Assembly: GCA_038845265.1 (NCBI GenBank)
Contig: JAWBQR010000007.1
Location: forward strand, 1 to 64,000
Direction: 5' to 3'
From: Nitrososphaerota archaeon
GTDB lineage: Archaea; Thermoproteota; Nitrososphaeria_A; Caldarchaeales; Calditenuaceae
Length of the DNA: 64,000 nucleotides
The position numbers and the translations under genes were made by a program. A model generated the notes under the pieces. That model was not told the DNA's origin. It was given only the letters and a program-made list of their open reading frames with translations, and did not search any database. Shown piece by piece: positions 45,664 through 64,000 of the stretch (positions are counted from its first letter, which is position 1; each line of letters starts with the position of its first letter).

Positions 45664-45837
45664 TTATTCCTCTGCTTGTAGATTTAGGTTTCTACGTCTC
45701 TTTACCGGCAGTCCTAAGTCTCGTCTCACGAGGTCCTCGATGTATTCACTAATGATTATTCCGTCCCTATCCCTCTTCTCGTAGAGCATGTAGGCTATCT
45801 CCATATCAATAGATATCGACAGTACTGTCTTCGGCAT
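45664..45837 (-). CDS. Small ribbon-helix-helix (CopG-like) protein, divergent from the portal gene
   Basis: [11 protein letters not shown]...[14 protein letters not shown]: alternating strand, helix, S..I helix. Confidence 0.55.
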
Positions 45838-45927
45838 CAATAAGAAAGACAAAACATGGAAATATTAATTTGGAGAGTATTGACTGAAAATGGTTTAGAT
45901 TCACTCACCACCCTCTCCTCTCAATAT

Positions 45928-45949
45928 TAACATTATATTAAGCATGTTA
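45928..45949. promoter_or_regulatory. Inverted repeat TAACAT-N10-ATGTTA enclosing a TATA-like box upstream of the portal gene
   Basis: Sequence TAACAT TATATTAAGC ATGTTA about 30-50 bp upstream of the portal ATG. Confidence 0.4.
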
Positions 45950-45978
45950 TATTTAGGCCAATTTAATATAATTAGACG

Positions 45979-47277
45979 ATGCTTGAAGCGTTGTTGTCGG
46001 CGGTGAGGCGGCTGGCCCGGCTGATGGGAAGAGATGGGGAGGAAGTGGCTGGGCCGAGTGGGTCCTTGGCGCTTCTGGGTGAGGGTTATGCTGGTGCATC
46101 GCCTGAGCCCGGATTGTCGGTTCTGGTTGACTGGTATAGAAGGGAGCCATATGTGAGATATGCGGTCGATGCATATGCCGGCAGAATAGCTTCTAAGTTC
46201 TACATCACTTCAAATGACCCTGAGGCGCTTAACTTCCTCATGATTTTCCTGAGGAGAAATAAGTTTTCATCGATTAATCGACTTATCGCTAGGGATGTTG
46301 TTCTCTCGGGTAATGCTTTCCTGAATGTTGTCCCGGCATCCAGGATATCTAACCTGTATCTCTTGCCGCTCAGCAGCATCTCAAGCATACTGAGAAATGA
46401 TTCTGGAGAAGTCGTCGAGTATCTCCAGAATTGGGGAGGAATGATTAGGAGGCTTCCTCCGGAAGAGGTGCATCACTATAGGTTTAATCCCATTGATAAC
46501 GCCGCCTTCGGGGAGGGCCTGATAAATCACTTGACCCGGCCCGGGAGGGGCTACTTCAGGAAGGGCAGACAGGTCAGGAGGCCTCCGTTACTAGAGATCA
46601 AGGAGAGAATCGATAATGCTGCCAGGCTTCTTCTCGAGGAGATGCCGCCATTCTTCGTCTTTAAGGTCCCTCTCGGGAAGAGACGGGAGTTCTCGGAGAC
46701 GTATAATCAGCTCCTCCCGGGCCAGCACGTTGTCATCGACTACGATGTCTTTGAGGTCAAGTCTTCTCAGGTCGAGTCTAGGACGAGGTTCTGGGAGCTC
46801 TGGGAATACCTCGATAGGCAAGTCCTGACTGGGCTGAAGAATCCATTAGTGCGTTTAATCACCTATACTGGCTTTAGCAGGGCATCCGCTGAGGCTGCTC
46901 TCGAAACTCTTGAGCCAGAGATATCGTCTATCCAAGAATTCCTCGGCTCAGAGCATGAAGCCCTGCTTAACAGGGTCCTAGAGAGCAATGGGTTTGACGT
47001 TGAGCTCGCTGATGTTAGGTGGAACTGGGCGAGTTCAGAGTTTCCAGAATGGAGCATTAGAGACGTGATAGATCTCTATGAAGCAGGTCTCCTCGAGAGG
47101 GAGGAGGCCAGGACAATTATCAGGGAGCTGACCGGACTCTTCGTCGGAGCTGAAAGAGAGCATAACCTCCGACTCATGAGTAGGGAAGAATCAATATACG
47201 TTTTATGGAACGGGAAAGTCTCCGCAGTCTCACCTGAGACTGCGATGATCCTCGAGGGGAGGATTAGAAATGCTTGA
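45979..47277 (+). CDS. Phage portal protein
   Basis: Y...PYVRYAVD, DVVLSGNAFL, LPLSSI, VVEYLQ, LPPEEVHHYRFNPIDNAAFGEG, C-terminal GLLEREEAR. Confidence 0.82.
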   Translation: MLEALLSAVRRLARLMGRDGEEVAGPSGSLALLGEGYAGASPEPGLSVLVDWYRREPYVRYAVDAYAGRIASKFYITSNDPEALNFLMIFLRRNKFSSINRLIARDVVLSGNAFLNVVPASRISNLYLLPLSSISSILRNDSGEVVEYLQNWGGMIRRLPPEEVHHYRFNPIDNAAFGEGLINHLTRPGRGYFRKGRQVRRPPLLEIKERIDNAARLLLEEMPPFFVFKVPLGKRREFSETYNQLLPGQHVVIDYDVFEVKSSQVESRTRFWELWEYLDRQVLTGLKNPLVRLITYTGFSRASAEAALETLEPEISSIQEFLGSEHEALLNRVLESNGFDVELADVRWNWASSEFPEWSIRDVIDLYEAGLLEREEARTIIRELTGLFVGAEREHNLRLMSREESIYVLWNGKVSAVSPETAMILEGRIRNA

Positions 47278-48322
47278 GAGTAGGGTCCTCTCGTTTAGTT
47301 GGCTCGGAGAGATATCAGCAGAGCTGGCTGAAGGCATGATGCTTGCAGAGCTAATAGCAATACATGAGGGCGAGTCGAGACATCTTGGTACACCTAGGGA
47401 GCCCCGCATAAGGATTACCCGCGAAGAGATTATCAGGTCTGCAAGAACTCTCAGAGGAGCGTTGATAGACATCGACCACGCATTATCAGACCCTAAAGTA
47501 CAGCTCAGGGCGGAGTACTACCGTGAAAAGTATGGCCTAGGAACTTTGGGGCCAGTTGGTCAGGTGCTGGACGCCGAGGCTGAGGACAACCCTGAGGTCG
47601 GCGGCCTGGCTGTGGAGGCAGTTGCAAGCATCTGGGACAAGACTGTGTATAAACTCATCCAGGATGGAGTCTTTAAAGGATGTAGCGTCGTCCAGAAATA
47701 CAGATTCGACAAGTGTGTCCAGGGCACTTCATATGTCTGTGACGCCGTCGGTGTTAGTTATCCGATGGTCTCGCTTGTGCTCGAGGGCGAGCCTGCGTTT
47801 CCAAAGACGACCGTGAGGCCGCTTAGAATTGATAGAATCAAGCAAGGAAGACTGCAGGAGATAAAGGTACCGACTAGAATCGCAGGCATCTCAATTCATT
47901 ACTCATATTCTCCATGCTCTGGATTCAGCAGAAGACTCTTAGAGACAAGTCAAGTAACCGTAAGGCCGACCGGAATGATTGAAGCATCACCCATCTTTAA
48001 AGAGAATAAACCATGCGATCACTCAGGCTTCATCGATTCTCTCAAAAAGTTTGACTCACAGACCCCACACATGATTCCAACCCAAATATACCTCGATCTG
48101 ATGAGGTCAGCCCTTGCTGAGACCTCCGATTGTGGGCACCGAGAATTAGTCATGGCATGGATGCCGCCGACAACTATGGCCTACATGCCGGCGTGGAGGC
48201 TCCTATCATTCGTGTCTTGGCTCAGAAAATCTCTGGGCTCCCCCCAGACCGCTCTGCAGCTGCACGGCGGCTGGAGAGGGGGTGATGCAGAAAATTGGAT
48301 AAATCCCCAGAACAAAGATTAG
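47270..48322 (+). CDS. Putative prohead (capsid maturation) protease with C-terminal extension
   Basis: EEIIRSARTLRG.LIDIDH, VGQV, G.FKGCSV, SLVLEGEPAFP; located between portal and capsid genes. Confidence 0.65.
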   Translation: MLESRVLSFSWLGEISAELAEGMMLAELIAIHEGESRHLGTPREPRIRITREEIIRSARTLRGALIDIDHALSDPKVQLRAEYYREKYGLGTLGPVGQVLDAEAEDNPEVGGLAVEAVASIWDKTVYKLIQDGVFKGCSVVQKYRFDKCVQGTSYVCDAVGVSYPMVSLVLEGEPAFPKTTVRPLRIDRIKQGRLQEIKVPTRIAGISIHYSYSPCSGFSRRLLETSQVTVRPTGMIEASPIFKENKPCDHSGFIDSLKKFDSQTPHMIPTQIYLDLMRSALAETSDCGHRELVMAWMPPTTMAYMPAWRLLSFVSWLRKSLGSPQTALQLHGGWRGGDAENWINPQNKD

Positions 48323-48765
48323 GACAGCTGATATACAGGTCCGGAGAGAGAGCGACGGCAATCGTTAAGGCTGGAGCAATTGCCTTGACTGGTGGAGAGC
48401 TACTACGTGTCGGAGACAACGACGGCGAATTGACAGTCGCAGATAGTGGCGACATAGTAGTGGCCGTTCTTGGAGACGGGCAGACAATTCAGCCAAACAC
48501 ATCCGCCTACGCAGCAGTCTACTATCTGGGAAACGTTTTCAAGTTACGAGCGGCGGGCCAGGTCCAGAGGGGAAGCTGGGTCAAGGCAGGGATAGGCGGC
48601 AGCGTGGTCCAGGCAGAAACAACGGTAAGCATTCCTAGCGGAGCAGTACAAGTAAGCAGTACATCGGCGCAGCCATCAATGGTGGTCGAAGGATTCATAG
48701 GCATAGGAGTTGCCTTGGACGAGGCTGAGACTGCTGGAGACTTCATAAGGGTGGTGATGAAGTGA
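48295..48765 (+). CDS. Putative capsid cement/decoration protein (DUF2190-like)
   Basis: KAGAIAL.GG..V, LRAAGQVQRGSWV, IGVALDEAETAGDFIRV; immediately upstream of MCP. Confidence 0.65.
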   Translation: MDKSPEQRLGQLIYRSGERATAIVKAGAIALTGGELLRVGDNDGELTVADSGDIVVAVLGDGQTIQPNTSAYAAVYYLGNVFKLRAAGQVQRGSWVKAGIGGSVVQAETTVSIPSGAVQVSSTSAQPSMVVEGFIGIGVALDEAETAGDFIRVVMK

Positions 48766-49772
48766 TGAGTGAATCAATAAACGAGGTATTATCAAGCCTC
48801 GGGCAGCTCTATCCATGGTACTTCAGGGAGAGAAGATGCATCACGATGATTGATGCATATGAGGGCAGAGATTCTAGGCACGAGGGAATAATTGAAAGAA
48901 TAGTGACGAACAAGTTCCTGCAGAGGGCTAGGCAGTTCCTCTATACGGGAAGCGAGGCAGGCGCGTTAGGGCAGGTCGTAAGCGACGTCCTCAGGGCCGC
49001 ATATCCTGAACAGATCGGAAGAGAAATGGTGAGAATATATGAGAGTAGGGAGCCAAAGATAAGGATTCCATCGATTCCCAGGCTAGTTGCGTATAGGGCG
49101 GGCCCAGGAGCAACCGTGCCGCCGACAACGCCAAACATAACCTACATCGACCTCGACGTGAATGCCCCATCGCAGGGAGCAGTATTCAAGGCAAGGAGCG
49201 AGTGGGACATAAGCTTCGTTACCGCAGCTAACTGGGAGGCTGTGAGAGAGATCACTGCAAGCATAGGCTCGGCCATCGCGCTCGAGGAAAGCAAATTCAT
49301 ACTGTCATGTCTCAGGATGATCAGTGATGAGGAGCTCGCGGGAGGCGGCCCAATTAGTCTAGGAGATGCTCCAATAACTTTTGATGACATATTGGATTTG
49401 AAAGGCGCGGTCGATGGTGAGGAGAGAGCGCCTACTGGAAGGGACTACAAGTGCTTCCTCCACCCAAAGAGGGCGATAGATCTGCTGAAGGACCAGAAAT
49501 TCATTAACTCGATGATATGGGGCCAAGCGGTTAATAAGGAGAGAGGAGAGATTGGTGTCGCGGCTGGTATAAGGTTTTTCCAGAGCAGCCTGATACCTGA
49601 GGGTGAGGTCTGGCTACTAAACCCCGAGAGAGCCGTCGCGATGCTGATACACATAGACCTAACAGTCGAGCCGATCGAGACCAGCAGCACCACGAGCGGC
49701 GTCGAGGGATACGAATACATAGCTGCGAGAGTGCTTGATGGAAAGGCCGTCGCGAAGGGTACAATACCCTAG
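48762..49772 (+). CDS. HK97-fold major capsid protein
   Basis: E-loop-like IPS..VAYRAGPGATVP, IGSAIALEE.KFIL, ITFDDILDL, FLHP....DLLKD, GEIG..AGIRFFQSSLIPEG; context after portal/protease. Confidence 0.85.
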   Translation: MMSESINEVLSSLGQLYPWYFRERRCITMIDAYEGRDSRHEGIIERIVTNKFLQRARQFLYTGSEAGALGQVVSDVLRAAYPEQIGREMVRIYESREPKIRIPSIPRLVAYRAGPGATVPPTTPNITYIDLDVNAPSQGAVFKARSEWDISFVTAANWEAVREITASIGSAIALEESKFILSCLRMISDEELAGGGPISLGDAPITFDDILDLKGAVDGEERAPTGRDYKCFLHPKRAIDLLKDQKFINSMIWGQAVNKERGEIGVAAGIRFFQSSLIPEGEVWLLNPERAVAMLIHIDLTVEPIETSSTTSGVEGYEYIAARVLDGKAVAKGTIP

Positions 49773-49782
49773 AAGCAGCAGG

Positions 49783-49986
49783 ATGATTCATGAACGTGAG
49801 CCGAGGCTGATAATCTATGTCTCGGAGGAGATTCATAAGAAGTTGAAAGTGCTCTCCGCAAGTAGTGGGCTGACAATGGGCATGCTTTCAGACGCCTTCA
49901 TCAATTACGTACTCAGGAACAAGGAGCTGACTAGGCGTCTCATAGAGGACATGGGTGGGAGATGGATTGAGCAAGAAGAAACATAG
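49783..49986 (+). CDS. Ribbon-helix-helix DNA-binding protein
   Basis: RLIIYVSEEIHKKLKVLSASSGLTMGML (ParG/CopG-like). Confidence 0.65.
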   Translation: MIHEREPRLIIYVSEEIHKKLKVLSASSGLTMGMLSDAFINYVLRNKELTRRLIEDMGGRWIEQEET

Positions 49987-50149
49987 CCTCAGTCCAGGAC
50001 GAGAGACAACCCTCGAAGGCATAGCAGTCATATCGCTGACCTACGCACTAAACACATTCATCAATGGAGAGGTCACGGTCGGCGCTGCTCTTGCTGCTCT
50101 CGGATTGTCAATAATCTACCTGAAGTATAGGCTGAGAATTAAGGAATGA
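49955..50149 (+). CDS. Small two-TM membrane protein, holin-like
   Basis: Two hydrophobic helices and a basic C-terminus (LKYRLRIKE); in the capsid operon. Confidence 0.4.
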   Translation: MGDGLSKKKHSLSPGRETTLEGIAVISLTYALNTFINGEVTVGAALAALGLSIIYLKYRLRIKE

Positions 50150-51102
50150 GCTGCCTAGCGGTATTACTCATTCTTACAATACTTCAAGCATCAGTTATTA
50201 CGCAGAGTGAGAATTTTATCGGCGTCTTATCTGGCCCGGAGAGGAGTGGAGAGCAGCACCAATACGTGATAGACATTGAGCCAGGCACATTACTCATAGT
50301 CTCCGTCTCCTTCAAGTCTCTTGAGGGTGTCGGCGCAAGGATATACGCAGCTATCAGTGAGCCAAGTGGAGGAAACTATGCCTATGCTGATGAGCTTCTA
50401 GCTTCCTCTTCTTCCAGAACGTTGAATCTAAGCTACTACTTCGGCTCCTCGACGGATGCTAGAAATGTGAGGCTGCTGGTCGGCTCGGTTGCTGATAGAT
50501 ATGCGCCGGCTCTTATCAGGTATGACTTGACTGTTCATCGCTACAGACTGCTAGACATGGGGCTAGCGGATGCAGGTGATAGTCTAGAGGCGCCGCTAAT
50601 GATAGACCTTATAGATGGAGAACGAGCCGACGACGCCCATATACTCAGCATTAATGGATACCTCTCCCCCTCGGGGCTGGGAAATGACCATGCTGACTAT
50701 TACTTGATTCGTCTGCCAGTTAAGGACGACTATGTAGTGAGCGCCGAGATAATGGGTGACTCCTCATCGCTGATCAATGCATACATCAGGCTCAGTGATG
50801 GCTATCCAGTGAGCAGAATCTCAGGTAGTGGCATTACTGCGATGCTGAAGAACGCTGGCGAGTTCTTAGTCTCGGTCGAGACTTACGGAGCATCTTCCTC
50901 AATCATCAGCTATAACTTGACGCTCAGAGTATCGAGGCTCAGCAACTATGTGGAAAACGAATCCAGATGGGCACTGATAAACCTAGACATAGTCGTCGCT
51001 GCGCTGCTTGGATTAGCAGTTGCCCTGCTCCTGATGTATGCTACTGGCATCTGGGTTAGCGCGGGAAAGGATAGAAAGACACTAGCATCGTCATACCTCT
51101 AA
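50146..51102 (+). CDS. Secreted, C-terminally anchored beta-sandwich (PPC-like) surface protein
   Basis: Signal peptide, DAGDS and D.ADYY motifs, Y.LT strands, C-terminal TM. Confidence 0.55.
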   Translation: MSCLAVLLILTILQASVITQSENFIGVLSGPERSGEQHQYVIDIEPGTLLIVSVSFKSLEGVGARIYAAISEPSGGNYAYADELLASSSSRTLNLSYYFGSSTDARNVRLLVGSVADRYAPALIRYDLTVHRYRLLDMGLADAGDSLEAPLMIDLIDGERADDAHILSINGYLSPSGLGNDHADYYLIRLPVKDDYVVSAEIMGDSSSLINAYIRLSDGYPVSRISGSGITAMLKNAGEFLVSVETYGASSSIISYNLTLRVSRLSNYVENESRWALINLDIVVAALLGLAVALLLMYATGIWVSAGKDRKTLASSYL

Positions 51103-51140: not shown

Positions 51141-54100
51141 ATGGATAATCATATCTCAGCAGTAATGCGGGCATCCACGCCGCTGGAGCTCTCAAAGTAC
51201 TATGAATACATCACCTCTAGGGTGAAGGAGGAGTATGAACTGGCCTCTAGGGTCAGGGCTGAGACGGGCTCCCCTGTCCCTGTAGTTGAGGTCTCGCTTC
51301 CATCCGATATGGCTGAGAGGGTCGAGGTTCTAGTAGGGCCTCGCGGCGTAGCCTCCCTGATAAGGGACCTCCTCGAGAAGTGCGATGAGGACATACTGCC
51401 ATTCAGGTTAGCGGAGACACTGCTGAAGAGGTATGATAGAATCAATGACGATGCCCTAAGCCAGGTCTTGAAGGTCTCATTGGCTGTCATGACTCCTCCA
51501 TGCATAACGGCTGCTCCAACCGAAGGCATCACAGGAGTAAAGATAAAGAAAAACAATGACGGCTCAAATTATCTTGCCGTTTATTTTGCTGGGCCTATTA
51601 GGTCGGCTGGCGGAACCGAGATTGCTGGCGCGGTGGTGCTTGCGGACTACATCAGGCGGCTCGCCGGCATCAGTAAGTATCAGCCGACAGACCAGGAGGT
51701 AAGGAGATACATCGAGGAGCTTAGGGTGTACCGAAGAAAGGTTGGGCGCTTCCAGTACAATGTCCCGGACGAGATAGTTGAGTTTGTCTTGAGAAGACTG
51801 CCCATCGAGATTACAGGGGTCGCTACAGACCCGATACCTGTGCCTGCGTATAAGGACTTACCGAGGGTCGAGACGCCCTATCTGAGGGGAGGAGCCCTGA
51901 GGGTGCTGAACGACGGAGTAATAGGCAGGGCCAAGAAGGTCCTAAAGATAGTCAAGGTCAGCGGGCTGGATGGCTGGGAGTGGCTTGAGGAGGTTGCCGC
52001 CAAGCTCAGCGAGGCCAAGTCAACTGGAAAAAACACTGGCCTAGACGACGTTGTTGGAGGCAGGCCGGTCCTCTCAACTCCAGGGAGATTTGGAGGATTC
52101 AGAATAAGGTATGGCAGGGCACCGACGACATCGATGGCGGCGCTAGGAATTCATCCATACACTATGAGACTCATGGAGAACTTCGTTGTAGCTGGAACAC
52201 AGCTGAGGATTGATTATCCCGGGAAGGGAGGAATAGCGGTGCCGGTCAGTAGCATCGAGCCCCCCGTCGTCATATTTAGAGACGGCTCAGTCATGAGAAT
52301 AGACAATGAGGAAAAACTCGCAGAGGCAGAGAGATCAGAGTACAAGATACTATTCAACGGAGACATACTCATAAGCTTTGGAGATTGTGTTGAGAATAAT
52401 GTAAAGCTTCAGCCGCCGGGATACTGCGAGGAGTGGTGGATACAGGAGGCGCTGCTCGAAGAGTCTCGTAAAGGACGTCTCAGCGACGAGGACCGCAGGT
52501 GGCTTGAGAAGATTCGGAGAGACCCGTACCGTATCATTCCGCCAGTGGAGGTTGCATGTAGGATAAGCCATAAGCTCGGCGTACCGATTCATCCCAGATT
52601 CATGCCATTCTGGGACCGTATCTCTGGAAGGGAGATTGAGAGGCTCAGGAGGTGGCTTGCCTCAGCGATACCTAAAGCTAGGAAGGGCTGGGGCATGTTA
52701 ATACTTGACTATGACCCAGAGGCGAAATCCATACTTGAGAAGATGCTGATAGAGCACTTAGTGCTTGACCACAAGATAGCGCTTGACCTTCACTGGGTCA
52801 AGTCCCTTAACTTTCTGTTCAGACCATTCATCAGGGTAGACGTCTCCAAGTCATCCGTGCCTGAGTTGATTAGTTCTCTGTCTGGGACATCCTTCAGGCC
52901 TAGAATGGGTAGCACGGTCTCAGCGAGGGTGGGCAGGCCTGAGAAGGCTGGACAACGGAGAATGAAGCCGCCGGTTCATGTACTCTTTCCAGTAGGGATG
53001 GCCGGTGGCCCCCAGAGAGACATAATCACCGCAGCAAATACTAGGTCAGTTGTCCTCGAACTCGTCAGGAGGGTGTGCCTAACATGCGGAGAGAAGACAT
53101 GGATGAACAGATGCAAGCACTGTGGAAAACCAACAGCAATGATGGCGGAGTGCCCCAGATGTGGAGCAGAATACATCGAGCCCGAGCAGGAGAAGTGTCC
53201 AAGATGTGGAGAAGAACTGAAGAGGACTTGGAAACAGCTCGTCAACTTGAAGGAACTCTACGAAAATGAGCTCATGAAGGCATATGAGCCTCCACCCCGA
53301 GTCCTCAAGGGCGTAAGGGCATTAACTAATAAGTCAAAGCAGCCCGAAGAGCTCTTAAAGGGAATTCTTAGGGCAAACCTGGGACTTTATGTCTACAAGG
53401 ATGGGACGATAAGATTTGACGCCGTTAATGCGCCGTTGACACACTTTACTCCCTCACAGATAGGTGTAAGCCCAGAGAGGCTCAGGGAGCTAGGCTACGA
53501 GAGAGACATATTTGGACAACCACTCGTCTCGCCGCACCAGATATGCGAGCTCCGAATACAGGACATAGTCGTCCAGAGAAGAATGGCTGAACATCTCTTC
53601 AACGTCTCAAAATTCATAGATAAGTACCTCAAGATAAATGGCTTCGATGAGTACTACAAGCTCCAGAGCGTCGAGGACGTTGTAGGAATAATGGTTGCAG
53701 TCTTGTCGCCCCACACCTATGGAGCCGTCGCCTGCAGGGTAATAGGAATCACGGATGCAAACGTCCTCTATGCCCATCCATTACTTCACGCAGCTAAGAG
53801 GAGAGACTGTGACGGAGACGAAGACAGCGTAATGCTACTATTAGATGTCTTCATCAATTTTAGCAGAGAGTACCTCCCAGACAGGATAGGCGGAGCAATG
53901 GATTCCCCCCTCCTCCTGACAGTGAAGGTTTATCCCGAAGAAGTTGACGAGCAGGCCCATAACGTCGATACTGCTTGGATTTATCCACTGGAGTTTTATG
54001 AAGCCGCGTCAAGGAAGGAACCCGCGTCAAGACTGATAGGAGTCATTCCAATAATCAAGAATTATCTCAATTATCCTGAGTGCTATTTTGGATTTGCCTA

Positions 54101-55377: not shown

Positions 55378-55381
55378 CGCT

Positions 55382-56644: not shown

Positions 56645-56646
56645 CC

Positions 56647-57403: not shown

Positions 57404-57946
57404 ATGCCTGGAGACATATTGTTTGAGCCGGTCTCAAAATATGTTAGACGTGGCTTTATTGTGCTTGAAGAGTCAAGCAGAGTTGAGGATGCTGTGAGAG
57501 CCATGAGGGAAAACGGCTATGGAAGCATCATAGTTACTAGTGGGGGTCGGCCAGTCGGTATTCTTACCGAGAGGGACGTTCTCTACCGAGTTGTAGCCGA
57601 GGGCAAAGACCCAAAAAATACTAGGATAGGCGAGGTCATGACGACTCCGCTGGTCACGGTCACTCCTGAGACAAAGGTAAGCGAGGCAATAGCACTAATG
57701 TCTAGTAAAGGCATCAGGAGGCTCGTCGTCACTTGTGGGGAAAAAATAATAGGAATCATCAGCTTAATGACGCTTGTCGGAGACTCCACTGGTAGGGCAA
57801 TCCTTCTTCCAGAGATCGAAGTGGAGGAGAGGGTTAAGTGTCCATATTGCGGAGCAGTCTTTGGGACTGTTGGTGAGCTCTCAAGACACATAGACAGGAT
57901 TCATATAGGGTTTGGTCTCCTTAGCGATGAGCGACTTAGGCATTAA
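57404..57946 (+). CDS. CBS-pair protein with C-terminal C2H2 zinc finger; start trimmed
   Basis: GILTERDV, VMTTPLVTV, IRRLVV; CPYC...LSRHIDRIH. Confidence 0.85.
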   Translation: MPGDILFEPVSKYVRRGFIVLEESSRVEDAVRAMRENGYGSIIVTSGGRPVGILTERDVLYRVVAEGKDPKNTRIGEVMTTPLVTVTPETKVSEAIALMSSKGIRRLVVTCGEKIIGIISLMTLVGDSTGRAILLPEIEVEERVKCPYCGAVFGTVGELSRHIDRIHIGFGLLSDERLRH

Positions 57947-58188
57947 GAAGCATTATCAGTACTTGTAAGTCTTTCAAGCTGCTCTTTAAGCTTTATATTT
58001 TCTAATAAAAGTTCATCTACTTTGTTCTGAAGATTCTCAATACTACTCATTAGTCGCCGCTTTTCCTCCTCAAGAATCACAAGCCTATTTGATAATTCTT
58101 GATTAATCTGCGTTATTGATATTAGTTTTTTCTTTATTTTTTCTGAGGCCTCAACAGGTAGTCCTGTTTCTCCATCAATCCAGCTCAT
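57943..58188 (-). CDS. Small coiled-coil protein at the end of the tail module
   Basis: Heptad Leu pattern; 5 bp after the adhesin stop. Confidence 0.55.
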   Translation of the reverse strand: MSWIDGETGLPVEASEKIKKKLISITQINQELSNRLVILEEEKRRLMSSIENLQNKVDELLLENIKLKEQLERLTSTDNAS

Positions 58189-58193: not shown

Positions 58194-60182
58194 TTACACC
58201 AGCCCAATCATATCGATTATTGGTTTGCCTGAGAGGACTGTTATTATGCGTGCGGGGAAGTTGAAGTTTTGTGGCGCAATATATGAGTCCCCACTATTTT
58301 GAAGGTATATCATTGCTGATTTATGCTCATTTATCATTACTAAAGTATTGGCTTCTGTCGCCGTTACTCTTAATATGTACAACTCAGTGAAACCAAAATC
58401 TCTCGGCGTGACTGGATTCTTATTATAATATACATTGAATTGTGTAATTGCCCTCGTCGCTAATCCTGCACCCGCGGCCCATATCTCCCACCTGAGACTT
58501 GTCTCAAGTGGTATTCGTATGCGGGGAGCAGTGGCTGGGAGGACTACTATCTTTGTCTGTGAGGTCGCAGAACTAGTAGTGATTGGTATTGATAATGTAT
58601 AGTTATCAAATCCCGCGAACTCCATGCTGCTTGACGTTTGAGCCATGACTAATAGTCCAAGTATCGTGACTGCGGGAGCCTCTATGTCTATCGCCGTCCT
58701 TGTGCCCTCATATATCTTTGTGTATTGTACGCCGTCTATCTTGAAGCTCAGGTCTGTCGCCGTGTTTATTGTCCATGTGTTTCCCGCGTCCGTGGAGGTT
58801 ATGAAGTATTCGAGTAGGCCGGGTGGTGTGGTGCCTGTTCCTCCGTTTTGGACGCTGTATCTATTTGATGAGTCTCCGCCAATTGTGTAGGCCACGATGG
58901 CATATACAGTATCTGGCCTAAGCGCTACTGGTGTTGAGAGCGATACACTATACCATGCGGCCGATGTCCCGATAGATGTTGATTGTCCACTCGCTAATAC
59001 GGTTTCTCCTGGATAAATTCTCTTGGCATAAACTTTTAGAAATGTAGTTTTATCACTTGACTGCGTCCATCCATTTCCCTCGTTAATAAAAATTTTTGGT
59101 AAATCATTTTGATACCCAGCGCATATTTTGTAATAATTATCTGTGTCTCCCCCAGCCGCATGAAAAACTATGTAAAATGTTTTTTTACTATGATAAACTT
59201 TACTATAACTAAATACAGCAGTTATCCATGACAAGGCGTTAGGTATATTTTCTGGCGCTATTGTTGTGTATGCAATTAATTCTCCGTCGGGTTCTCCGCC
59301 CCGTAGCTCGACGATTAGGCCGCCGGGGTTTCCAACACGGCAGGCAAGAAATTCTATTTTACCGATATCATAATAAGTAGTAAATGGCATAGCTATTTTT
59401 CTTGAGCCATAAACTTGTTCGGGCTCGCTTGCTATGTAGACTTGGCAGGCATAGTCTCCAGAACCTTGATTCCATCCAGAACCATAATACCATGAGCCAG
59501 GAATTACATCACTACTATTATACTTCAAAGCTTTACCGCTGGATAATTGAATTGTGAAGTAGTAGCTTGTGTTTGCATCAAGTAGTGGCGGGTCTGATAA
59601 ATCAATATAGCAATAATTAGTGCCGTCACTATTGATTGAGGCCTGGATTGGGCCGTAAATAACTGTCCCGCCTGGCCCGCCCGTCCTAATGGTGAACGTT
59701 GCGGTGTTAGCTCCACCGCCAATTATGAATCCATACCTAAATGGAACAAATTTTTTAGTATATATTATTTCTTGAGAAAATTGAGTATAACCTATGGTGG
59801 TTGCATTATTTGCAGACACGGAATAAACTGGAGTAAAACTAGTTTCTAATATCGGGTTATCATCGGTCACTAATTCTTTAATGTCCCGAACCTCGACGAT
59901 AAGGGGATTCGGAGGCGAGCCAGCCTTTGCTCCATAGAGCTGGACAGCCGTGACCTTAAGTGCATTCTGAGGCGTAATAAATACTTGACCAATCATATTA
60001 GCTCCGTAAACAGGATTAGATGTCCCCGTATTTGCATTCTGAATCAGTGTAGCCGGTGTAGTTGAGACGCTCCACGACTTGGGAGTGTTGTCTGCGGTCT
60101 GCTCGCCCTCCACGGGGACTGCTTGGAGGTAGGGCCACCTAAGCGGCTGGCCCTCAAGCTCCGTATAGACTATCTGGCTCAT
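58194..60182 (-). CDS. Putative tail fibre/adhesin with repeated beta-sandwich domains
   Basis: T/S/G/Y-rich; repeated GQ.F...L....G.P..LIVE.R and Y.IV....GGD..N.Y motifs; follows the tail hub gene. Confidence 0.6.
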   Translation of the reverse strand: MSQIVYTELEGQPLRWPYLQAVPVEGEQTADNTPKSWSVSTTPATLIQNANTGTSNPVYGANMIGQVFITPQNALKVTAVQLYGAKAGSPPNPLIVEVRDIKELVTDDNPILETSFTPVYSVSANNATTIGYTQFSQEIIYTKKFVPFRYGFIIGGGANTATFTIRTGGPGGTVIYGPIQASINSDGTNYCYIDLSDPPLLDANTSYYFTIQLSSGKALKYNSSDVIPGSWYYGSGWNQGSGDYACQVYIASEPEQVYGSRKIAMPFTTYYDIGKIEFLACRVGNPGGLIVELRGGEPDGELIAYTTIAPENIPNALSWITAVFSYSKVYHSKKTFYIVFHAAGGDTDNYYKICAGYQNDLPKIFINEGNGWTQSSDKTTFLKVYAKRIYPGETVLASGQSTSIGTSAAWYSVSLSTPVALRPDTVYAIVAYTIGGDSSNRYSVQNGGTGTTPPGLLEYFITSTDAGNTWTINTATDLSFKIDGVQYTKIYEGTRTAIDIEAPAVTILGLLVMAQTSSSMEFAGFDNYTLSIPITTSSATSQTKIVVLPATAPRIRIPLETSLRWEIWAAGAGLATRAITQFNVYYNKNPVTPRDFGFTELYILRVTATEANTLVMINEHKSAMIYLQNSGDSYIAPQNFNFPARIITVLSGKPIIDMIGLV

Positions 60183-62038
60183 CCTCCCTCCCTCCAGACT
60201 ATCTTGACTAGGCCAACTCTAGGGGACTCATCAGTCGGGCTCATTCTGGAAAGTGTAAAACGCATAGTGATTTTCTCATTTACGGCAGGTATCAATAGGA
60301 AGTCAGAGTCAATATTGAGCGTAGGCAGCTCGGATTCAAGATTGATCCAGTTTAATATCTCGATATCAGCATCCGTCAGGTAGGTCTCGCTTCTAGTCCA
60401 GACCCCAGCATGGACGCGTAGATTCGCTGTGAGGTAATTCTGCGATGATTGATGCAGCCTCACCGTGACGTAGCCATCATTCATCGAGTATAGATATAGG
60501 CGAAACATCTTCATTCCGCTTAGTCTCCAGCCGAGTAGCCTCGAGCTTGGATAGATAAGCCTCATAACTCCAGGGCCAGTCCTATTAGCCATGATGCTGC
60601 GGCCCGACACGATAGATAACGCAGACCTAGTAACTGCCGCGTTCTCAGATATCCATAATGATTCGTCACTCGTCAATTCTCCCGGCACCTTTGGGAGATA
60701 CCTGAATTCATAGTCTGGCGGTAAGTCTCGCTCTACTACTTTTCCATCACTCTTCAACAACTCAACTTTTACCTCTCCTTTATTCTCTCTGCATAGATAG
60801 TGTGTCCTGAGCCATCTCGTGAAGAGTGAGGACTGCGGCGTGTAGCTAAACTCAAAGCTTCCAGATGTATATCCAGCCGCTAGGCATGCCTCGCCATTCT
60901 CGTCCAACACGATGTTTGTGGGGTTCTCTAATACTAGTGGAGGCTTGTTGATGATTCTTATTGTCCTCGTGTCTGCCTGTAGTTTCTGCGCCATCATGAC
61001 CGTGGATACGAGTGCAGAGACATCGCTGAGCGCCTCGGCGGCTGATAGGCGATGTCCAAACCTAGAGGTAGTCTCTCCCCTCATTAATTCATCGAGAAAT
61101 TCTTCGAGGTATTCCCTGACCCCTCCAAGCACCACTGTCCTAGTCCTCTCAGATATTGATGGCTGGTATTCGATTCCGAGGACGACCATCTCTTTCTCCA
61201 ATAATCCAAGTGATGGTAGATTGATGGTCAGCGTCTCTCCTATGTCTATCCCGATTGTTCTGAAGGTCTCAGAGGCGACCTCGAGTTTTAGGCTGAGTCC
61301 CCGCTCCTTCTCCATCATTAGCCTAGTCCTGGCACGTCTCTCAGCCTCAGCTCTACTCGTCAGGAATGGGTCGTGAACTACGAGCGGAGAGTCTCCGGGC
61401 TCCTCTGAACACTCCGCCAAGACTTCTCCATCACTTCCGACATAGATTATCCTATTCCTCATTCTCCATTTGTCCTCTAGTAGTTCAGCCCTCCTCACCT
61501 CGTTCTCGGTTATTGTTCCGAGCGGTGTCTTGGCTGTCTTGGGCCTAAAGATGAGTCTCTTGCCGGGCTTCATGAGTAGGAGAAAGTTTACTCCGCGTGC
61601 AGTGTCTCTCATTACTTCTAGTGCCGATACATTCTCTATCGGCCAGTCAGTCACGAGTTGTTCCCCATCAGCTACATCTGTTGTGTCGACGTCTTTCTCA
61701 AGCTGTGCGAGTTCTCTTATTATTTCTCCCGCGTATGTGCCGGGCCTGTAGAGCCTGAAGACTATGTGTCTGTCATAGCTTATCAGGTAGCTGTATGCTA
61801 GGCACTTCGCCCTAGTCAGTCCCCGCTCCCTTCTAATCTCTCGCTGATAGATTATTCCCTCGAAGACCGGCTCCTCGTCCTCGAGAAGCATTACTTCCCC
61901 GCCCGGAGAGACCTCGCCTAGGTCCGGATTAACTACTTCAAATTCCAGGCTCTCAAGCATGTTGTGCGATATTCTCCTAACCGTGGCTGAGGCACGGTCA
62001 GCGTAGTTGTTCTGCCCTATCAACAACTCGAGGGTCAA
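60179..62038 (-). CDS. Putative tail hub/baseplate protein
   Basis: VFEGII...., AGEIIREL, NRIIYVG, DPFLTSRAEAERRA, IGETLTINLP: tail-hub pattern directly after the tape measure gene. Confidence 0.7.
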   Translation of the reverse strand: MTLELLIGQNNYADRASATVRRISHNMLESLEFEVVNPDLGEVSPGGEVMLLEDEEPVFEGIIYQREIRRERGLTRAKCLAYSYLISYDRHIVFRLYRPGTYAGEIIRELAQLEKDVDTTDVADGEQLVTDWPIENVSALEVMRDTARGVNFLLLMKPGKRLIFRPKTAKTPLGTITENEVRRAELLEDKWRMRNRIIYVGSDGEVLAECSEEPGDSPLVVHDPFLTSRAEAERRARTRLMMEKERGLSLKLEVASETFRTIGIDIGETLTINLPSLGLLEKEMVVLGIEYQPSISERTRTVVLGGVREYLEEFLDELMRGETTSRFGHRLSAAEALSDVSALVSTVMMAQKLQADTRTIRIINKPPLVLENPTNIVLDENGEACLAAGYTSGSFEFSYTPQSSLFTRWLRTHYLCRENKGEVKVELLKSDGKVVERDLPPDYEFRYLPKVPGELTSDESLWISENAAVTRSALSIVSGRSIMANRTGPGVMRLIYPSSRLLGWRLSGMKMFRLYLYSMNDGYVTVRLHQSSQNYLTANLRVHAGVWTRSETYLTDADIEILNWINLESELPTLNIDSDFLLIPAVNEKITMRFTLSRMSPTDESPRVGLVKIVWREGG

Positions 62039-63439
62039 TTATATCACGCCCCTCAGGCGACGCATGATTGTTGCTCCCAGTTTTTCAGCAAGCATCTCCC
62101 AGTTATTTTCGCCGAGTGGTTGGGCCACGTTGACTTTGATTGTTAGGCTGATATTGTTTACTCTGGGCTGAGGCATGGTCAACGGATTGTCCATCTCTAT
62201 GACTGTAATGGTATCTCTCCTAAGGTCCTCAAGCATACTCATTGTTTTTCTAGTTCCCCAGTCATACCAGCTGATTATTCCCCTCCACATATCTGGCACG
62301 ACTGAGTGTCCCACCAGCGTGTCGTGGAGCCACTTGAATGCATCCTTGACGGACTTTGTTAGTCCCTCTATCCATCCAGTAATCGTGTCTATCGCTGACT
62401 TAATCACCCTAGTTATTGCTTCCCAGATCTTCTTTATTGATTCTTGAGCCCACTCAAATGCCTGGATCCAGCTCTTCACATAGTTGATGAAGAGTCCGGC
62501 AATAAACTCTCCTAGAGGTCTTAAAACCTTCTCCCATAGCCACGTCAACGCATCTCCAAGCGATCTACCAGCAGACGAGAATACATCAAGCATGCTGATT
62601 ACTACTTGGATGCTCTTCTGGAAGACTGAGGCCAAAAACTCGGCCAGCGGTTTTAATACATTCTCCATGACCCAGCTCAGGACTGGGCCGAAGAAGTCAC
62701 CTATCGCTCGGGCTAGCGAGTTTACTGCATCCCTAAAGCCGAGGAAGTTTGTCTCGTAGGCGGCGATTAGGGCGCCGATAGCCGTCAGGGCTATCCCGAT
62801 CGGGCCTAGCGCGACGTTAAGACCCATGAAGCTGACCTTCAGTGAATTAATTCCGCCGACCATCATGGGCACCGTCTTGGCGAGTGCTGCTAAGGAGTTT
62901 GCTGCCTGTATCCCCTGGGGAACTAGTCCAACTAAGCTGACACCCATCGCGACTACTTGCATCTGTGCATCTCTCTGAGCATCTTCTAGGCTTCTTGTAG
63001 CCTTCTCCAGGTCCTTCTCGGCCTTCTCCAGTTCTCGCTGCGCCTTGATAGATTCCTCGACACTTCCAGCAGAGAGGAAACGGTTCAACGCCTGCTCGTA
63101 TCTTTCGTGGGCCTCACTCAAGGCGAGCTGCGCAGTATTGACCCTAGTCATCGCGGTGTTCCAGGCATTGAAGAGTGAGAGAGTCCTAGAACCGAGCGCG
63201 GCGATGTTGTTTAGCTGTCCGGCCACGAACTGCGCTCTTTCACCAAATATCTGTGATTCTTCAGCAATAGCTCGAAGGATTTGTCTCTGTTCTCTAGACT
63301 CCCTGACGACATCTGCAGCCATCCTCTTAACGGTCTCGTTACTTTCTCCAAGCTCCTTTACTGCCTCCGAGACCGTCTTTATGCTAGGCGTAGCCCTATC
63401 CTCAGCGACAAAACTAATCCTGACCTCTTCTCTGGACAT
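62039..63439 (-). CDS. Tail tape measure protein (short, 466 aa)
   Basis: N-terminal I.F.AEDRAT, coiled coil, hydrophobic LGPIGIAL..IGAL, YETNFLGFRDAV, periodic W/F repeats, VGHS. Confidence 0.82.
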   Translation of the reverse strand: MSREEVRISFVAEDRATPSIKTVSEAVKELGESNETVKRMAADVVRESREQRQILRAIAEESQIFGERAQFVAGQLNNIAALGSRTLSLFNAWNTAMTRVNTAQLALSEAHERYEQALNRFLSAGSVEESIKAQRELEKAEKDLEKATRSLEDAQRDAQMQVVAMGVSLVGLVPQGIQAANSLAALAKTVPMMVGGINSLKVSFMGLNVALGPIGIALTAIGALIAAYETNFLGFRDAVNSLARAIGDFFGPVLSWVMENVLKPLAEFLASVFQKSIQVVISMLDVFSSAGRSLGDALTWLWEKVLRPLGEFIAGLFINYVKSWIQAFEWAQESIKKIWEAITRVIKSAIDTITGWIEGLTKSVKDAFKWLHDTLVGHSVVPDMWRGIISWYDWGTRKTMSMLEDLRRDTITVIEMDNPLTMPQPRVNNISLTIKVNVAQPLGENNWEMLAEKLGATIMRRLRGVI

Positions 63440-63467
63440 CTAAGAATAATCATATCAAAAGCCAGTT

Positions 63468-63475
63468 ATTATAAA
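63468..63475 (-). promoter_or_regulatory. TATA-like box upstream of the tape measure gene
   Basis: TTTATAAT on the minus strand about 30 bp before the ATG in a 75-bp AT-rich spacer. Confidence 0.35.
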
Positions 63476-63514
63476 CTCTCAAATAAATAATTAATTATTG
63501 ATAACAAATTAAAA

Positions 63515-63922
63515 TTAGAGTATTTTTAGCTGATTGTTTAGTATTTTGTCTTTGTTCTCTTTCCATGTGTCTATTGCTCTCGAGATGAATCCTGAGGGCT
63601 TGATTCCTGGATGAATCTTTATGAATCGCCAGCCGGCACCATTGATCAATACTGATCTTTGGAGAGTGAATGGTTTGACTCCCTTCTCGACGTATAGTGT
63701 GTATGGGGCCTCCGAGACGACTTCATAAAGTAGTTCATCTCTCCTAGATACTTTAATCGAGGATGATAGCCTCCCAGTCCTCCTCGGTGCCAATGCTGCG
63801 GAGACCGATGCAACCAGCTCGGCGCTCGCCTCAAGATATTTCGTCATCAAAAGTCTGTACTTCTCTGGATTTAGCTTCTCCAGCACTTTCTCTATTCCGC
63901 TTATAGATATATCTATGGACAT
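63515..63922 (-). CDS. HK97 gp10-like tail/neck protein
   Basis: I.ISGIEK...L, APRRTGRLSSSI, APY..YVEKG, HPGIKP..FI..A. Confidence 0.82.
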   Translation of the reverse strand: MSIDISISGIEKVLEKLNPEKYRLLMTKYLEASAELVASVSAALAPRRTGRLSSSIKVSRRDELLYEVVSEAPYTLYVEKGVKPFTLQRSVLINGAGWRFIKIHPGIKPSGFISRAIDTWKENKDKILNNQLKIL

Positions 63923-64000
63923 CTCTGCTTCTTTTGGTTCTTTAATCTCTTCTTCGCTACGTGTGAGTATAGTACGAGGTCTAGGAGCAGGTCTCTGAGT

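Follow-up and report, generated by a model that had tools for sequence, protein, structure and literature searches.

Gene content of the two modules

The window, i.e., the whole stretch of 64,000 nucleotides that we analyzed (positions 1-64,000 of contig JAWBQR010000007.1, Nitrososphaerota archaeon assembly GCA_038845265.1, here genome G000), carries part of an element of 23 ORFs and ~18.3 kb, which lies in two modules on this one contig; the contig extends beyond the window to position 94277, and its coordinates are those of the window frame. The head module (45.66-51.10 kb) contains genes for a portal protein, p350, a scaffold-like protein and the major capsid protein (MCP), small ORFs and an anchored surface protein, and is separated by 6.8 kb of host genes from a tail-plus-packaging module (57.94-70.76 kb), with fibre, hub, tape measure protein (TMP), gp10-like, tube and connector genes on the - strand and a divergent + arm holding a TerS-like ORF, the large terminase (TerL) gene and an ABC-ATPase/GNAT gene. 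From the tube onward these genes all lie at 64.1-70.8 kb, past the window edge, and the statement in a preliminary description of this DNA that no terminase is visible, like the missing tube and connectors, proved to be an effect of that edge: the search of the rest of the genome proposed there found TerL and the tube on the same contig, and connectors as candidates. The element is a head-tailed-virus-derived gene set fixed in the chromosome of a hot-spring member of the Caldarchaeales (formerly Aigarchaeota), Calditenuis family, and, as judged from the predicted proteins, every part for building a siphovirus-like particle and pumping DNA into it appears to be present. Both modules are like the adjoining core genes in base composition, as had been noted by eye, and an Orc1/Cdc6 gene at 40139-41413, 4.5 kb from the element, makes the earlier label "core origin region" plausible.

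The head module begins with o62 (45664..45852, - strand), a small ORF that points away from the portal gene and is possibly a regulator, given its ribbon-helix-helix (RHH)-like look by eye in the printed sequence; its ortholog in the congener G001 is intact (81% identity, dN/dS 0.09), and it is absent at the empty site of the closest congener, G002. The portal gene (45979..47277, +), which opens the order portal-p350-scaffold-MCP of a head-tailed-virus module, matches phrog_9232 (1.2e-8) and also phrog_12, and its product is 85% identical to that of G001 (dN/dS 0.07), 46-49% to those of Calditenuis and 27-29% to those of Terraquivivens. Between the portal and scaffold-like genes, p350 (47270..48322, +) gave no significant match in Pfam, PHROG, NCBIfam or PDB searches, and its earlier designation as a protease found no family to support it; H70 and S139 are invariant among the nine members of its family (dN/dS 0.16, G000 versus G001), and we list it as a putative, unproven prohead protease. 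The next gene (48295..48765, +), previously taken for a cement protein, does belong to the head module but encodes a scaffold-like protein instead (phrog_673, head scaffolding, 1.3e-4); its place beside the MCP gene is conserved in g1, g2, L029 and one IMG/VR contig. The MCP (48762..49772, +) matches phrog_267 (6e-6), and its sequence suggests an HK97-type protein: the PHROG families matched by the 13-member MCP family (by 9, 6, 6, 2 and 1 members) are exclusively "major head protein", and the nearest Atlas clusters are Phage_capsid_4/Phage_capsid families (0.97). A PDB profile search with the MCP gave no match, and its dN/dS against G001 is 0.06. Two small ORFs, s83 (49735..49986, +; RHH-like by eye, phrog_5118) and s64 (49955..50149, +; a single hydrophobic segment), are intact in G001 at 77-81% identity. 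The module ends with p318 (50146..51102, +), whose hydropathy predicts an N-terminus resembling a signal peptide and, at the C-terminus, a membrane anchor; it has no family match in profile searches, is 51-53% identical in G001 (dN/dS 0.23) and is absent in G002.

In the second module, the small coiled-coil ORF o81 (57943..58188, -; 81 aa) comes after the fibre gene; it is 42-46% identical in G001, and in CalSub-Pro-like elements its homologs (40-60% identity) are located between the fibre and TerL genes. The hub and adhesin that had been named here gave weak hits and no strong match. For the candidate tail fibre/adhesin of 662 aa (58194..60182, -), these are phrog_877 (5.8e-5) and choice-of-anchor R (8e-7, below cut-off); its homologs come after the hub in G029, G036 and G038, and it is the fastest-evolving large gene (55-58% identity, dN/dS 0.15, G000 versus G001). 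The putative distal tail/hub protein of 619 aa (60179..62038, -) has a YQBQ-like match (2.9e-4), is 39% identical to a protein of a second element (C14, below) that matches PHROG tail proteins, and has homologs in 21 of 41 relatives. The TMP of 466 aa (62039..63439, -; dN/dS 0.12) matches 20 PHROG families (best 1.5e-13), and the HK97 gp10-like tail completion protein (63515..63922, -) matches PF04883, HK97-gp10_like, over the cut-off (1.7e-6) and phrog_5 (6.7e-12); PHROG and Pfam matches thus agree with the preliminary description on the identities and positions of portal, MCP, TMP and gp10-like protein.

Beyond the window edge follow s93 (64065-64346, -), the tail tube (64358-65293, -; Phage_tube_2 8.9e-21, phrog_290 1.9e-32) and connector candidates at 65357-65788, 65775-66164 and 66168-66506 (all -), one of them with a weak Mu Gp36 match. 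A divergent control region (66507-66609) lies between the tail and packaging operons and has 89 of 101 bases the same in G000 and G001; it is conserved to the same degree as host promoter regions. The + arm consists of p135 (66610-67017), p74 (67014-67238), the TerS-like wHTH protein p169 (67235-67744), TerL (67695-69314) and the ABC-ATPase/GNAT gene (69307-70761; ABC_tran and GNAT), a fusion whose Atlas clusters are 48-60% viral. TerL matches phrog_2 (4.3e-46) and, over both cut-offs, Terminase_6N (3.5e-14) and Terminase_6C (9.9e-5), with intact Walker A and B motifs, as expected of a large terminase. All ORFs of this module past the window edge are intact in G001 (59-90% identity, dN/dS 0.05-0.20) and absent at the G002 site.

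The host block and integrity of the assembly

The host core block (51141..57946) contains the single-copy PolD DP2 gene (51141-54575), GGGP synthase (PcrB/GGGPS, 54559-55377), Elf1 (55382-55777), a 207-aa ORF, tRNA-Gly(CCC) (56571-56646) and a CBS protein (57383-57946), for which Pfam and, for the tRNA, ARAGORN agree with the earlier reading of PolD DP2, GGGPS, Elf1, tRNA and CBS; no Pfam match was obtained for the 285-aa ORF (56647-57504), which had been listed as a polyprenol kinase. The CBS stop and o81 do overlap by 4 bp. Misassembly at the junctions, raised earlier as a possibility, was checked with Logan contigs from independent runs, which span the ATPase|head junction (X10 44500-46119, X9 45443-48336) and the head|PolD and CBS|tail junctions (X10 50350-61965, X9 57361-58383), and no Logan contig joint skips a module. 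Because independent assemblies bridge 3 of the 4 junctions, we regard the split as real and not as a misassembly; for the TerL-ABC/GNAT|host junction (70.76 kb), support comes from the assembly of G000 and from G001, where the arrangement is the same.

Mobility and replication genes

As had been claimed, neither the modules nor their immediate surroundings hold an integrase, an att repeat or a gene recognisable as one for replication, as judged from profile searches of the 23 ORFs, a survey of PF00589 and a comparison of boundary repeats. The sole PF00589 integrase matches in the genome lie at 93881-94090 of this contig (C7), 23 kb past the second module, and on C18 and C29; the interval of 70.8-85.9 kb, i.e., at least the first 15 kb toward the C7 match, consists of host genes syntenic with G002, with 85.9 kb being the end of the G002 DNA compared. 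Compared in pairs, the four module boundaries have repeats of at most 9 nt in common, which is within chance (shuffle maximum 11-13). Twelve of the 23 ORFs have no assigned function, all of them ≤350 aa and the 318-aa one signal-peptide/TM-anchored, and replication or regulatory roles could be hidden among these. Apart from these 12, what we find is what a gene transfer agent (GTA) is expected to show, i.e., virus-derived particle genes in the chromosome without their own replication, integration or excision functions. An ordinary integrated provirus, i.e., a contiguous insert with att repeats and an integrase, does not describe this locus, where 6.8 kb of single-copy host genes split the set in two species.

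A second head-tail element, CalSub-Pro-like, is present in the same genome on contig C14, and it could supply functions in trans to the split element. This bears on an explanation that we consider improbable, namely that the set is still a temperate head-tailed virus, co-speciated with its hosts and selected at the virus level, with replication and integration functions that are unrecognised, located elsewhere or drawn from the C14 element. The complete structural and packaging set, including the TerS-like wHTH protein and possible holin-like ORFs, would suit such a virus, as would the 12 ORFs of no assigned function and the C14 element itself; against it, the modules cannot excise as a unit because essential single-copy host genes lie between them in two species, and no att repeats were found at their boundaries and no integrase nearby.

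Comparison with two congeners

Our comparison with G001 revealed an identical split layout, with 23 of 23 ORFs intact and of matching lengths. Between G000 and G001, pS is 0.45-0.73 across these ORFs (synonymous sites saturated) and pN 0.06-0.31, and dN/dS, calculated by NG86, is 0.05-0.36 (median 0.12) versus 0.02-0.26 for 15 host neighbours, values that are rough because dS is saturated; they are well below 1, a test that the preliminary description had proposed. These data bear on whether the set is what is left of a provirus that a rearrangement broke up and that, now inactive and functionless, is slowly decaying. The split, the lack of an integrase or replication module and the empty G002 site would fit such a remnant, and so would a pseudogenised copy (G020), a deletion (G023) and the patchy phyletic pattern described below, yet neutral sequence at such divergence would be stop-filled, as the G020 copy is, and the intact sets of Terraquivivens and Calditenuis behave like those of G000 and G001. 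We therefore view a functionless, decaying remnant as highly improbable, it being largely refuted by the 23 of 23 ORFs that are intact at saturated synonymous sites.

G002, the closest congener, cleanly lacks both modules on one unbroken contig and has the same host block in the same orientation, so that the expectation of the same genes at syntenic positions in relatives held for G001 and failed for G002. Across 15 host genes (~5040 aa), identity is 86.5% for G000-G002, 81.6% for G000-G001 and 82.4% for G001-G002, which makes G001 the outgroup and the element older than all three species; its absence from G002 also shows the set to be dispensable. The element is therefore ancestral but dispensable, and the split predates the divergence of the two species that carry the set, which purifying selection has kept intact ever since.

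Related sets in other genera

The distribution across the order is patchy, with the MCP in 13 of 41 genomes and the tube in 12 of 41. Calditenuis and Terraquivivens have related sets that are likewise scattered, at positions conserved within each genus. In 5 of 5 Terraquivivens loci, for example, the head module has the same host genes on either side, with dS equal to flank dS and dN/dS 0.04-0.14, and in G026 the tail-TerL module is 88 kb from the head module. The host genes past the ABC-GNAT end of that tail-TerL module are common to G029, G023 and G020, and its dN/dS is 0.04-0.23, with the exception of one 101-aa ORF (0.75-0.94). Within this genus, the G020 copy is pseudogenised in place, G023 has lost ~14 kb of the tail-TerL module by deletion with its head module intact, and G031 gave no match. 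In Calditenuis G008, the set occupies at least three loci flanked by host genes on three separate contigs; across Calditenuis, the TMP-side flank is common to 4 of 4 loci that reach that side, dS equals flank dS, and dN/dS is up to 0.66, with flanks up to 0.46.

Taken with the split shared with G001, this co-divergence with host flanks in Terraquivivens and Calditenuis bears out the vertical inheritance that had been proposed, with purifying selection and with losses in G002, G020 and G023. Absence from close relatives, patchiness and pseudogenisation in relatives, which the preliminary description had held would count against its reading, are nevertheless found in part: G002 is empty, the MCP is restricted as above, and pseudogenes and deletions occur. 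A virus would have to accommodate dS equal to that of the host at fixed loci in three genera, and Calditenuis genes that are surrounded by host genes on three different contigs. What favors a virus here is mosaicism between genera, which is typical of viruses: TerL is 48-50% identical to Terraquivivens and ~30% to Calditenuis, the reverse of the portal, a pattern that speaks for exchange with viruses and against one ancient domestication event.

Known viruses and known systems

Our searches found no close free virus: IMG/VR gave 3 MCP relatives at 27-39% identity and none for TerL, and INPHARED gave no MCP match, so that no close relative in either database speaks for a virus. The TerL matches among those listed from INPHARED are 25-27% identical over 74-83% of the protein and include two Mu-like phages, Pseudomonas phage B3 and Pasteurella phage AFS-2018a, and the archaeal tailed viruses HGTV-1 and PhiF1. 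Unlike in Mu-like phages, we found neither a transposase nor any further replication gene of Mu, and identity is too low for family membership; earlier papers, in their remarks on Caldarchaeales prophage regions, called these "Mu-like" (PMC10547907, PMC6053391). Head-tailed virus families of Caldarchaeales, as outlined in a preprint (bioRxiv 10.1101/2025.08.23.671958), also lend some support to a virus.

Domestication of a GTA-like kind is not a new idea for this order, as it was already raised by Krupovic et al. 2019 (PMC6563490), who, in the part of their paper on CalSub-Pro of Ca. Caldiarchaeum subterraneum, described alongside Nvie-Pro1 and NCAV2-Pro1, called it "a distinct possibility". 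Going by that account, CalSub-Pro resembles our element in belonging to the same order and in having a head-tail set with TerL and no att sites or replication genes; the account rested on single genomes, and our comparisons add evidence that such sets co-diverge with their hosts and are under selection. The two types have homologous parts (hub, 37-45% identity; ABC-ATPase/GNAT, 35%; the small ORF after the fibre), but CalSub-Pro-like elements are contiguous, in the order head-tail-TerL, whereas the window element is split around host core genes and is a distinct lineage, with TerL at 23-30% identity and an MCP search that returned no CalSub-Pro-type capsids.

GTAs of the RcGTA type in Alphaproteobacteria have head-tail structural and terminase genes without replication or integration genes. 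Purifying selection acts on these sets, which are inherited vertically, lie scattered over several chromosomal loci and have been lost more than once in certain lineages. For RcGTA, packaging of random host DNA in a small capsid, host regulation and transfer have all been demonstrated. The element resembles it in gene content without autonomy, vertical inheritance, selection, dispersal and lineage losses, but its host is an archaeon; the organisms with this element are represented solely by metagenome-assembled genomes. VTA of Methanococcus voltae is an archaeal head-tail-like particle with host DNA, for which there are experimental transfer data; its host is a euryarchaeal methanogen, and its likeness to our element is by description.

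A proposed particle system kept by the host

We favor, as somewhat better than an even bet, a GTA-like particle system that is inherited vertically and is not autonomous; the presence of a terminase makes a DNA-packaging particle a better fit. The host would express both modules from conserved control regions, and TerS/TerL, of the Mu-like Terminase_6 type, would load HK97-type capsids by headful with mostly chromosomal DNA, a TerL type compatible with headful packaging. Tails would then be attached and particles released, possibly aided by the small membrane ORFs. Gene content, the split, contiguity, vertical inheritance, selection and the losses in relatives are shown by the sequences; particle production, the kind of DNA packaged, transfer and any benefit to the host are inferred, as are the host control and the movement of chromosomal DNA proposed earlier. 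The TerS-like wHTH protein could instead confer sequence-specific, virus-like packaging.

The set may instead have been domesticated to serve another purpose than gene transfer, e.g., as killer particles deployed against competitors or under stress, of which PBSX is an example, or as a delivery device, with any packaged DNA being incidental. We consider this unlikely, although vertical inheritance, selection and lack of autonomy fit it equally, and sequence separates neither reading from the other. The fibre and p318 evolve fastest (51-58% identity), as would be the case for parts in contact with other cells, and the losses in G002, G020 and G023 would fit a conditionally useful trait, but TerL, the TerS-like ORF and the portal are all kept under strong constraint (dN/dS 0.07-0.12), which a pure tailocin would not need.

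Extending the GTA-like reading, we offer as a tentative, and on balance doubtful, proposal that Caldarchaeales carry true archaeal GTAs in at least two lineages, which move host DNA between hot-spring cells, with modules that bracket origin-proximal genes allowing re-entry. One lineage would be the split element of the window's genus, Calditenuis and Terraquivivens, and the other the CalSub-Pro type of Caldarchaeum and other genera; if so, these would be the first GTAs in TACK archaea. In the window's genus, the genes between the modules are essential and close to the origin (PolD and GGGPS, with orc1/cdc6 not far off), so that ~25 kb packaged as one headful from the packaging module could hold the whole set plus host homology arms, and the set would re-enter cells without it, such as G002-like cells, through homologous recombination.

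RNA-library contigs, in which DNA carry-over is possible, fall in patches on the portal, scaffold/MCP, hub and gp10 genes as well as on host genes, a weak hint that the element may be expressed.

Gene content of the split element

The source genome (G000; 1.37 Mb in 34 contigs) carries the element on contig JAWBQR010000007.1 (C7; 94,277 bp, of which the window covers the initial 64 kb), where 23 ORFs, ~18.3 kb in total, form a head module (~45.66-51.10 kb) and a tail and packaging module (~57.94-70.76 kb). The head genes, located at 45.98-49.77 kb on the plus strand, encode in sequence a portal (phrog_9232, 1.2e-8), a 350-aa protein at the protease position (p350), a scaffold-like protein (phrog_673, 1.3e-4) and a major capsid protein (MCP; phrog_267, 6e-6). 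No family match was found for p350, and profile searches with members of the p350 family against PDB sequences and Pfam gave nothing significant. An alignment of 13 members of the MCP family matched PHROGs annotated exclusively as "major head protein" (9, 6, 6, 2 and 1 of 13), and the nearest protein-atlas clusters were Phage_capsid_4 and Phage_capsid (at 0.97); the MCP profile found nothing significant among PDB sequences. We consider the capsid identity of this protein firm at the level of sequence. The 318-aa ORF that closes the head module has a signal-peptide-like N-terminus and a C-terminal membrane anchor, and therefore does not look like a recombinase.

The tail genes at 58.19-63.92 kb, on the minus strand, comprise fibre and hub candidates (weak matches only), a tape measure protein (TMP; 1.5e-13) and an HK97 gp10-like protein (Pfam, 1.7e-6). 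PHROG and Pfam matches thus bear out the gene layout proposed for both strands in the preliminary description, with some of the gene names unproven. The terminase, tail tube and connectors, which were not seen there, are present at 64.07-70.76 kb of C7, and their apparent lack was an effect of the window edge. Past this edge, the minus strand continues at 64.07-66.51 kb with a 93-aa ORF, a tail tube (Phage_tube_2, 8.9e-21; phrog_290, 1.9e-32) and three small ORFs of connector size. Facing away from them, the plus-strand genes at 66.61-70.76 kb are three small ORFs, the large terminase TerL (phrog_2, 4.3e-46; Terminase_6N and 6C, with Walker A and B motifs) and an ABC-ATPase/GNAT fusion. The third of the small plus-strand ORFs is a candidate TerS, from its position and a make-up of winged helix and coiled coil recognized by eye. 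ABC-ATPase/GNAT fusions are common in tailed viruses (48-60% viral in atlas clusters with 164-230 members). We also observed that this fusion accompanies the elements in four genera (35-50% identity; C7:69307-70761, G029 L047:13650-15125, G008 L043:10710-12230 and G024 L045:1511-2968), at variable positions: after TerL, after the fibre gene or at the head end.

Location, junctions and mobility

The two modules are separated by host genes for PolD DP2, PcrB/GGGPS, Elf1, tRNA-Gly(CCC) and a CBS protein, plus two unassigned ORFs. An Orc1/Cdc6 gene (Cdc6_C, 1.9e-28) is present at 40139-41413 of the window, 4.5 kb to the left of the head module, which makes it likely that the element lies near a replication origin; G000 has another Cdc6 gene on contig C15.

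Misassembly had been raised as a possible cause of the split, and independent assemblies of further public hot-spring runs (contig sets X9 and X10) confirmed the split at three of the four junctions, the one at 70.76 kb being outside the compared stretch. Contigs from both sets span the ATPase-head junction, one 11.6-kb X10 contig runs from the head-PolD junction through the entire host block and across the CBS-tail junction, and this last junction is spanned by X9 too. Over the three junctions covered, no independent contig showed a joint skipping a module. A single inversion of an ordinary provirus is rejected, since the orientation of the host block relative to both flanks is identical in G000 and in its element-free congener G002. 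The division also bears on whether the element is a self-propagating virus: its halves are parted in G000 and in a second congener, G001, by essential single-copy host genes, and in that state such a virus could neither excise nor be packaged as a unit.

The absence of an integrase, an att repeat and replication genes, as noted from the window, held up in searches for PF00589, repeats and replication families. Integrase (PF00589) matches in G000 occur at C7:93881-94090, C18:883-1356 and C29:99-215 (the last below the cut-off) and nowhere else, and these tyrosine recombinases, situated at contig breaks or on small contigs, probably represent other mobile elements and are unlinked to the split element. 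The match nearest to the window lies at the end of C7, 23 kb past the second module, and host genes syntenic with G002 fill this gap for at least 15 kb from the module, as far as the G002 comparison DNA reaches. Direct or inverted repeats longer than 9 nt were absent between any pair of the four module boundaries (shuffled sequences reach 11-13), and none of the 23 ORFs matched a replication family. Alignment of the empty sites of G002 to the G000 junctions gave no convincing remnant, att site or target duplication: the scores were 38 for site 1 and 27 for site 2, with shuffle maxima of 26 and 27, and the site-1 score is above the shuffles but its first ~12 columns are homologous flank in both genomes. 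Both element-free junctions of G002 (C12, near 29.6 kb and 22.5 kb) share the 12-nt word TATGACTTCACT with the right end of the second module of G000 (C7:70763-70777); chance alone could account for this recurrence (E about 1.4), though it falls exactly at the boundaries.

Contigs of two RNA libraries from one study lie on the portal, scaffold/MCP, hub and gp10 genes as well as on host genes. These are only a hint of transcription, because DNA carry-over is possible, and we attach no meaning to their poor coverage of the tail module, most of which they do not reach.

Conservation and loss within the genus

Congruence of element and host, here and in the other genera, rests on pairwise identities and our own NG86 script. 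The layout and spacings in G001 are identical to those in G000, and each of the 23 ORFs has an intact ortholog there, of corresponding length. Synonymous differences between the element ORFs of these two genomes are saturated (0.45-0.73) and non-synonymous differences amount to 0.06-0.31, with dN/dS values of 0.05-0.36 (median 0.12) for the element and 0.02-0.26 for 15 host neighbours. If the element were a neutral remnant of a provirus, it could not have kept 23 of 23 frames open at such saturated synonymous divergence.

In G002, a single continuous contig shows the ATPase gene followed directly by PolD, and the CBS gene with, ~200 bp further on, the host gene located after ABC/GNAT in G000; these adjacencies demonstrate that both modules are cleanly absent. 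Among these relatives, the same genes occupy syntenic positions in the split layout of G001 but are missing from G002. Identity over 15 host genes (~5040 aa) is 86.5% between G000 and G002, 81.6% between G000 and G001 and 82.4% between G001 and G002, and since the G000-G002 pair is the most similar, G001 is the outgroup. On these identities, the split element predates the divergence of the three genomes, and G002 lost both modules.

Related elements in Calditenuis and Terraquivivens

MCP relatives were identified in 13 of 41 genomes (one of the two other genomes of the source genus, 6 of 7 of Calditenuis, 5 of 6 of Terraquivivens and none elsewhere), all being Caldarchaeales of Ca. Calditenuis/Calditenuaceae and Ca. 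Terraquivivens. The compact locus of Calditenuis has TMP, gp10, the 93-aa ORF and tube on one strand, read towards TMP, and portal, p350, scaffold and MCP divergent from them; all four loci that extend far enough beyond TMP have identical host genes there. Other parts of the Calditenuis element are on different contigs, which again argues against a self-propagating virus: in G008, TerL and then ABC/GNAT (with one connector gene divergent) lie on a second contig and the hub on a third, each amid host genes. In Terraquivivens, the head module is flanked by the same host genes in five of five loci, the tail-TerL module of G026 is located 88 kb from the head module on the same contig, and the tail set of G029 is complete, with hub, fibre and ABC/GNAT.

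Within each of these genera, the dS of the element equals that of the flanking host genes, and divergence between species follows one rank order in element and flanks alike. In Terraquivivens, dN/dS is 0.04-0.14 for head genes and 0.04-0.23 for tail and TerL genes, with the exception of one 101-aa ORF (0.75-0.94); in Calditenuis it is 0.11-0.66 for the element versus 0.15-0.46 for the flanks. Pseudogenisation in relatives, named in the preliminary description as evidence against a maintained system, does occur. In G020, the portal, protease-position gene, scaffold, MCP and TerL are fragmented in place, and this decay illustrates the fate of a neutral copy, a further argument against a neutral remnant in G000. 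In G023, a single ~14 kb deletion joins the TerL end to the ABC/GNAT end; the adjoining host genes match those of G029, and the head module is intact. G002, G020 and G023 demonstrate that the element is dispensable.

Affinities between genera are mosaic: TerL of G000 is 48-50% identical to that of Terraquivivens and ~30% to that of Calditenuis, and its portal is 46-49% identical to that of Calditenuis and 27-29% to that of Terraquivivens. For this reason a simple, single ancient domestication does not account for the three genera; either domestication was a repeated event, or there was exchange of modules with viruses.

Interpretation and significance

With a neutral remnant and a self-propagating virus both set aside, the best reading that follows is a non-autonomous, vertically inherited particle-and-packaging system resembling a gene transfer agent (GTA), which we favour by a modest degree. 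The earlier proposal of a domesticated, GTA-like system is partly supported: the element is split, non-autonomous and co-diverging with its hosts under purifying selection, but the terminase that was not visible in the window is present, and some relatives have lost the element. Retention is best read as reflecting usefulness to the host, and we infer the cargo and action of the particles. A PBSX-like role as a killer particle is a rival to gene transfer that sequence alone does not tell apart from it.

GTAs are experimentally established in a few bacterial groups and one methanogen. What is new here is comparative evidence, namely a complete particle and packaging set that has lost its autonomy, co-diverges with its hosts under purifying selection, is occasionally lost, and is scattered among host genes differently in each of three genera. 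If particles carrying host DNA were confirmed, they would represent a route for gene exchange, and perhaps also for DNA repair, in thermophilic archaea, and an independent case of virus domestication. These loci make the question of GTAs in the TACK lineage testable, as concrete targets for virome mapping, metatranscriptomics and capsid expression.

Precedents, distant relatives and further observations

The element has a precedent in CalSub-Pro, the provirus of Ca. Caldiarchaeum subterraneum, and the value of the present case is the quality of its comparative evidence. The accessible text of Krupovic et al. 2019 (PMC6563490) describes CalSub-Pro, Nvie-Pro1 and NCAV2-Pro1 as without att sites or replication genes and terms their GTA-like domestication "a distinct possibility", an idea raised there for single genomes only. 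Elsewhere, "prophage regions" and "Mu-like prophages" of Caldarchaeales are mentioned (passages of PMC10547907 and PMC6053391), and a preprint (10.1101/2025.08.23.671958) reports "HGT" of structural genes into Caldarchaeales, with 0 occurrences of "domesticat" in its accessible text. In the accessible literature we found no GTA claim for Caldarchaeales beyond the CalSub-Pro remark (PMC6563490), and supplementary provirus tables may cover these genomes.

Besides the split element, G000 has a further head-tail element, which is of the CalSub-Pro type and lies at C14:9573-22559 (L042:6973-19959), with protease-like, tube, gp10-like, 947-aa TMP and hub genes and TerL at the contig end; it has no matches in G001 or G002. 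CalSub-Pro-like elements are contiguous, with conserved gene order in the 10 loci examined (the C14 element and nine others from genera g4, g7, g9 and g11), whereas the C7 element is split around a host block. The flanks following TerL in this type are shared within Caldarchaeum and with g11, and also within g4.

No free virus close to the C7 element was found in IMG/VR or INPHARED. Three MCP relatives (27-39% identity) are present in IMG/VR and none in the INPHARED phage collection; TerL, as a single-sequence query, had no relatives in IMG/VR, and among the INPHARED matches listed its identities were 25-27%, to Mu-like phages, HGTV-1 and PhiF1. Distant relatives of the p350-scaffold-MCP trio (26-35% identity) were observed on contigs of the Bathyarchaeota B26-1/B26-2 MAGs (L036 and L038), and also on a 31.9-kb IMG/VR viral contig (L040); this distribution suggests a source lineage of viruses that extends beyond Caldarchaeales. 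The sole CRISPR array found in G000 (C8:7-537, at the contig start; 9 repeats) has 8 spacers, too few for the lack of matches to both elements and all compared loci to mean anything.

Two further observations concern the host DNA. In two metagenome runs, the region around the tRNA-Gly gene (56218-56868 of the window) is covered 10- to 150-fold more deeply than adjacent sequence, and loose ends flank the peak on either side; the excess reflects conserved tRNA sequence that other organisms in the samples also carry. At C7:71299-75327, a 1342-aa open frame on the plus strand is antisense to three conserved minus-strand host genes (70762-71949, 72016-73590 and 73636-74643), and is probably a spurious long antisense ORF.
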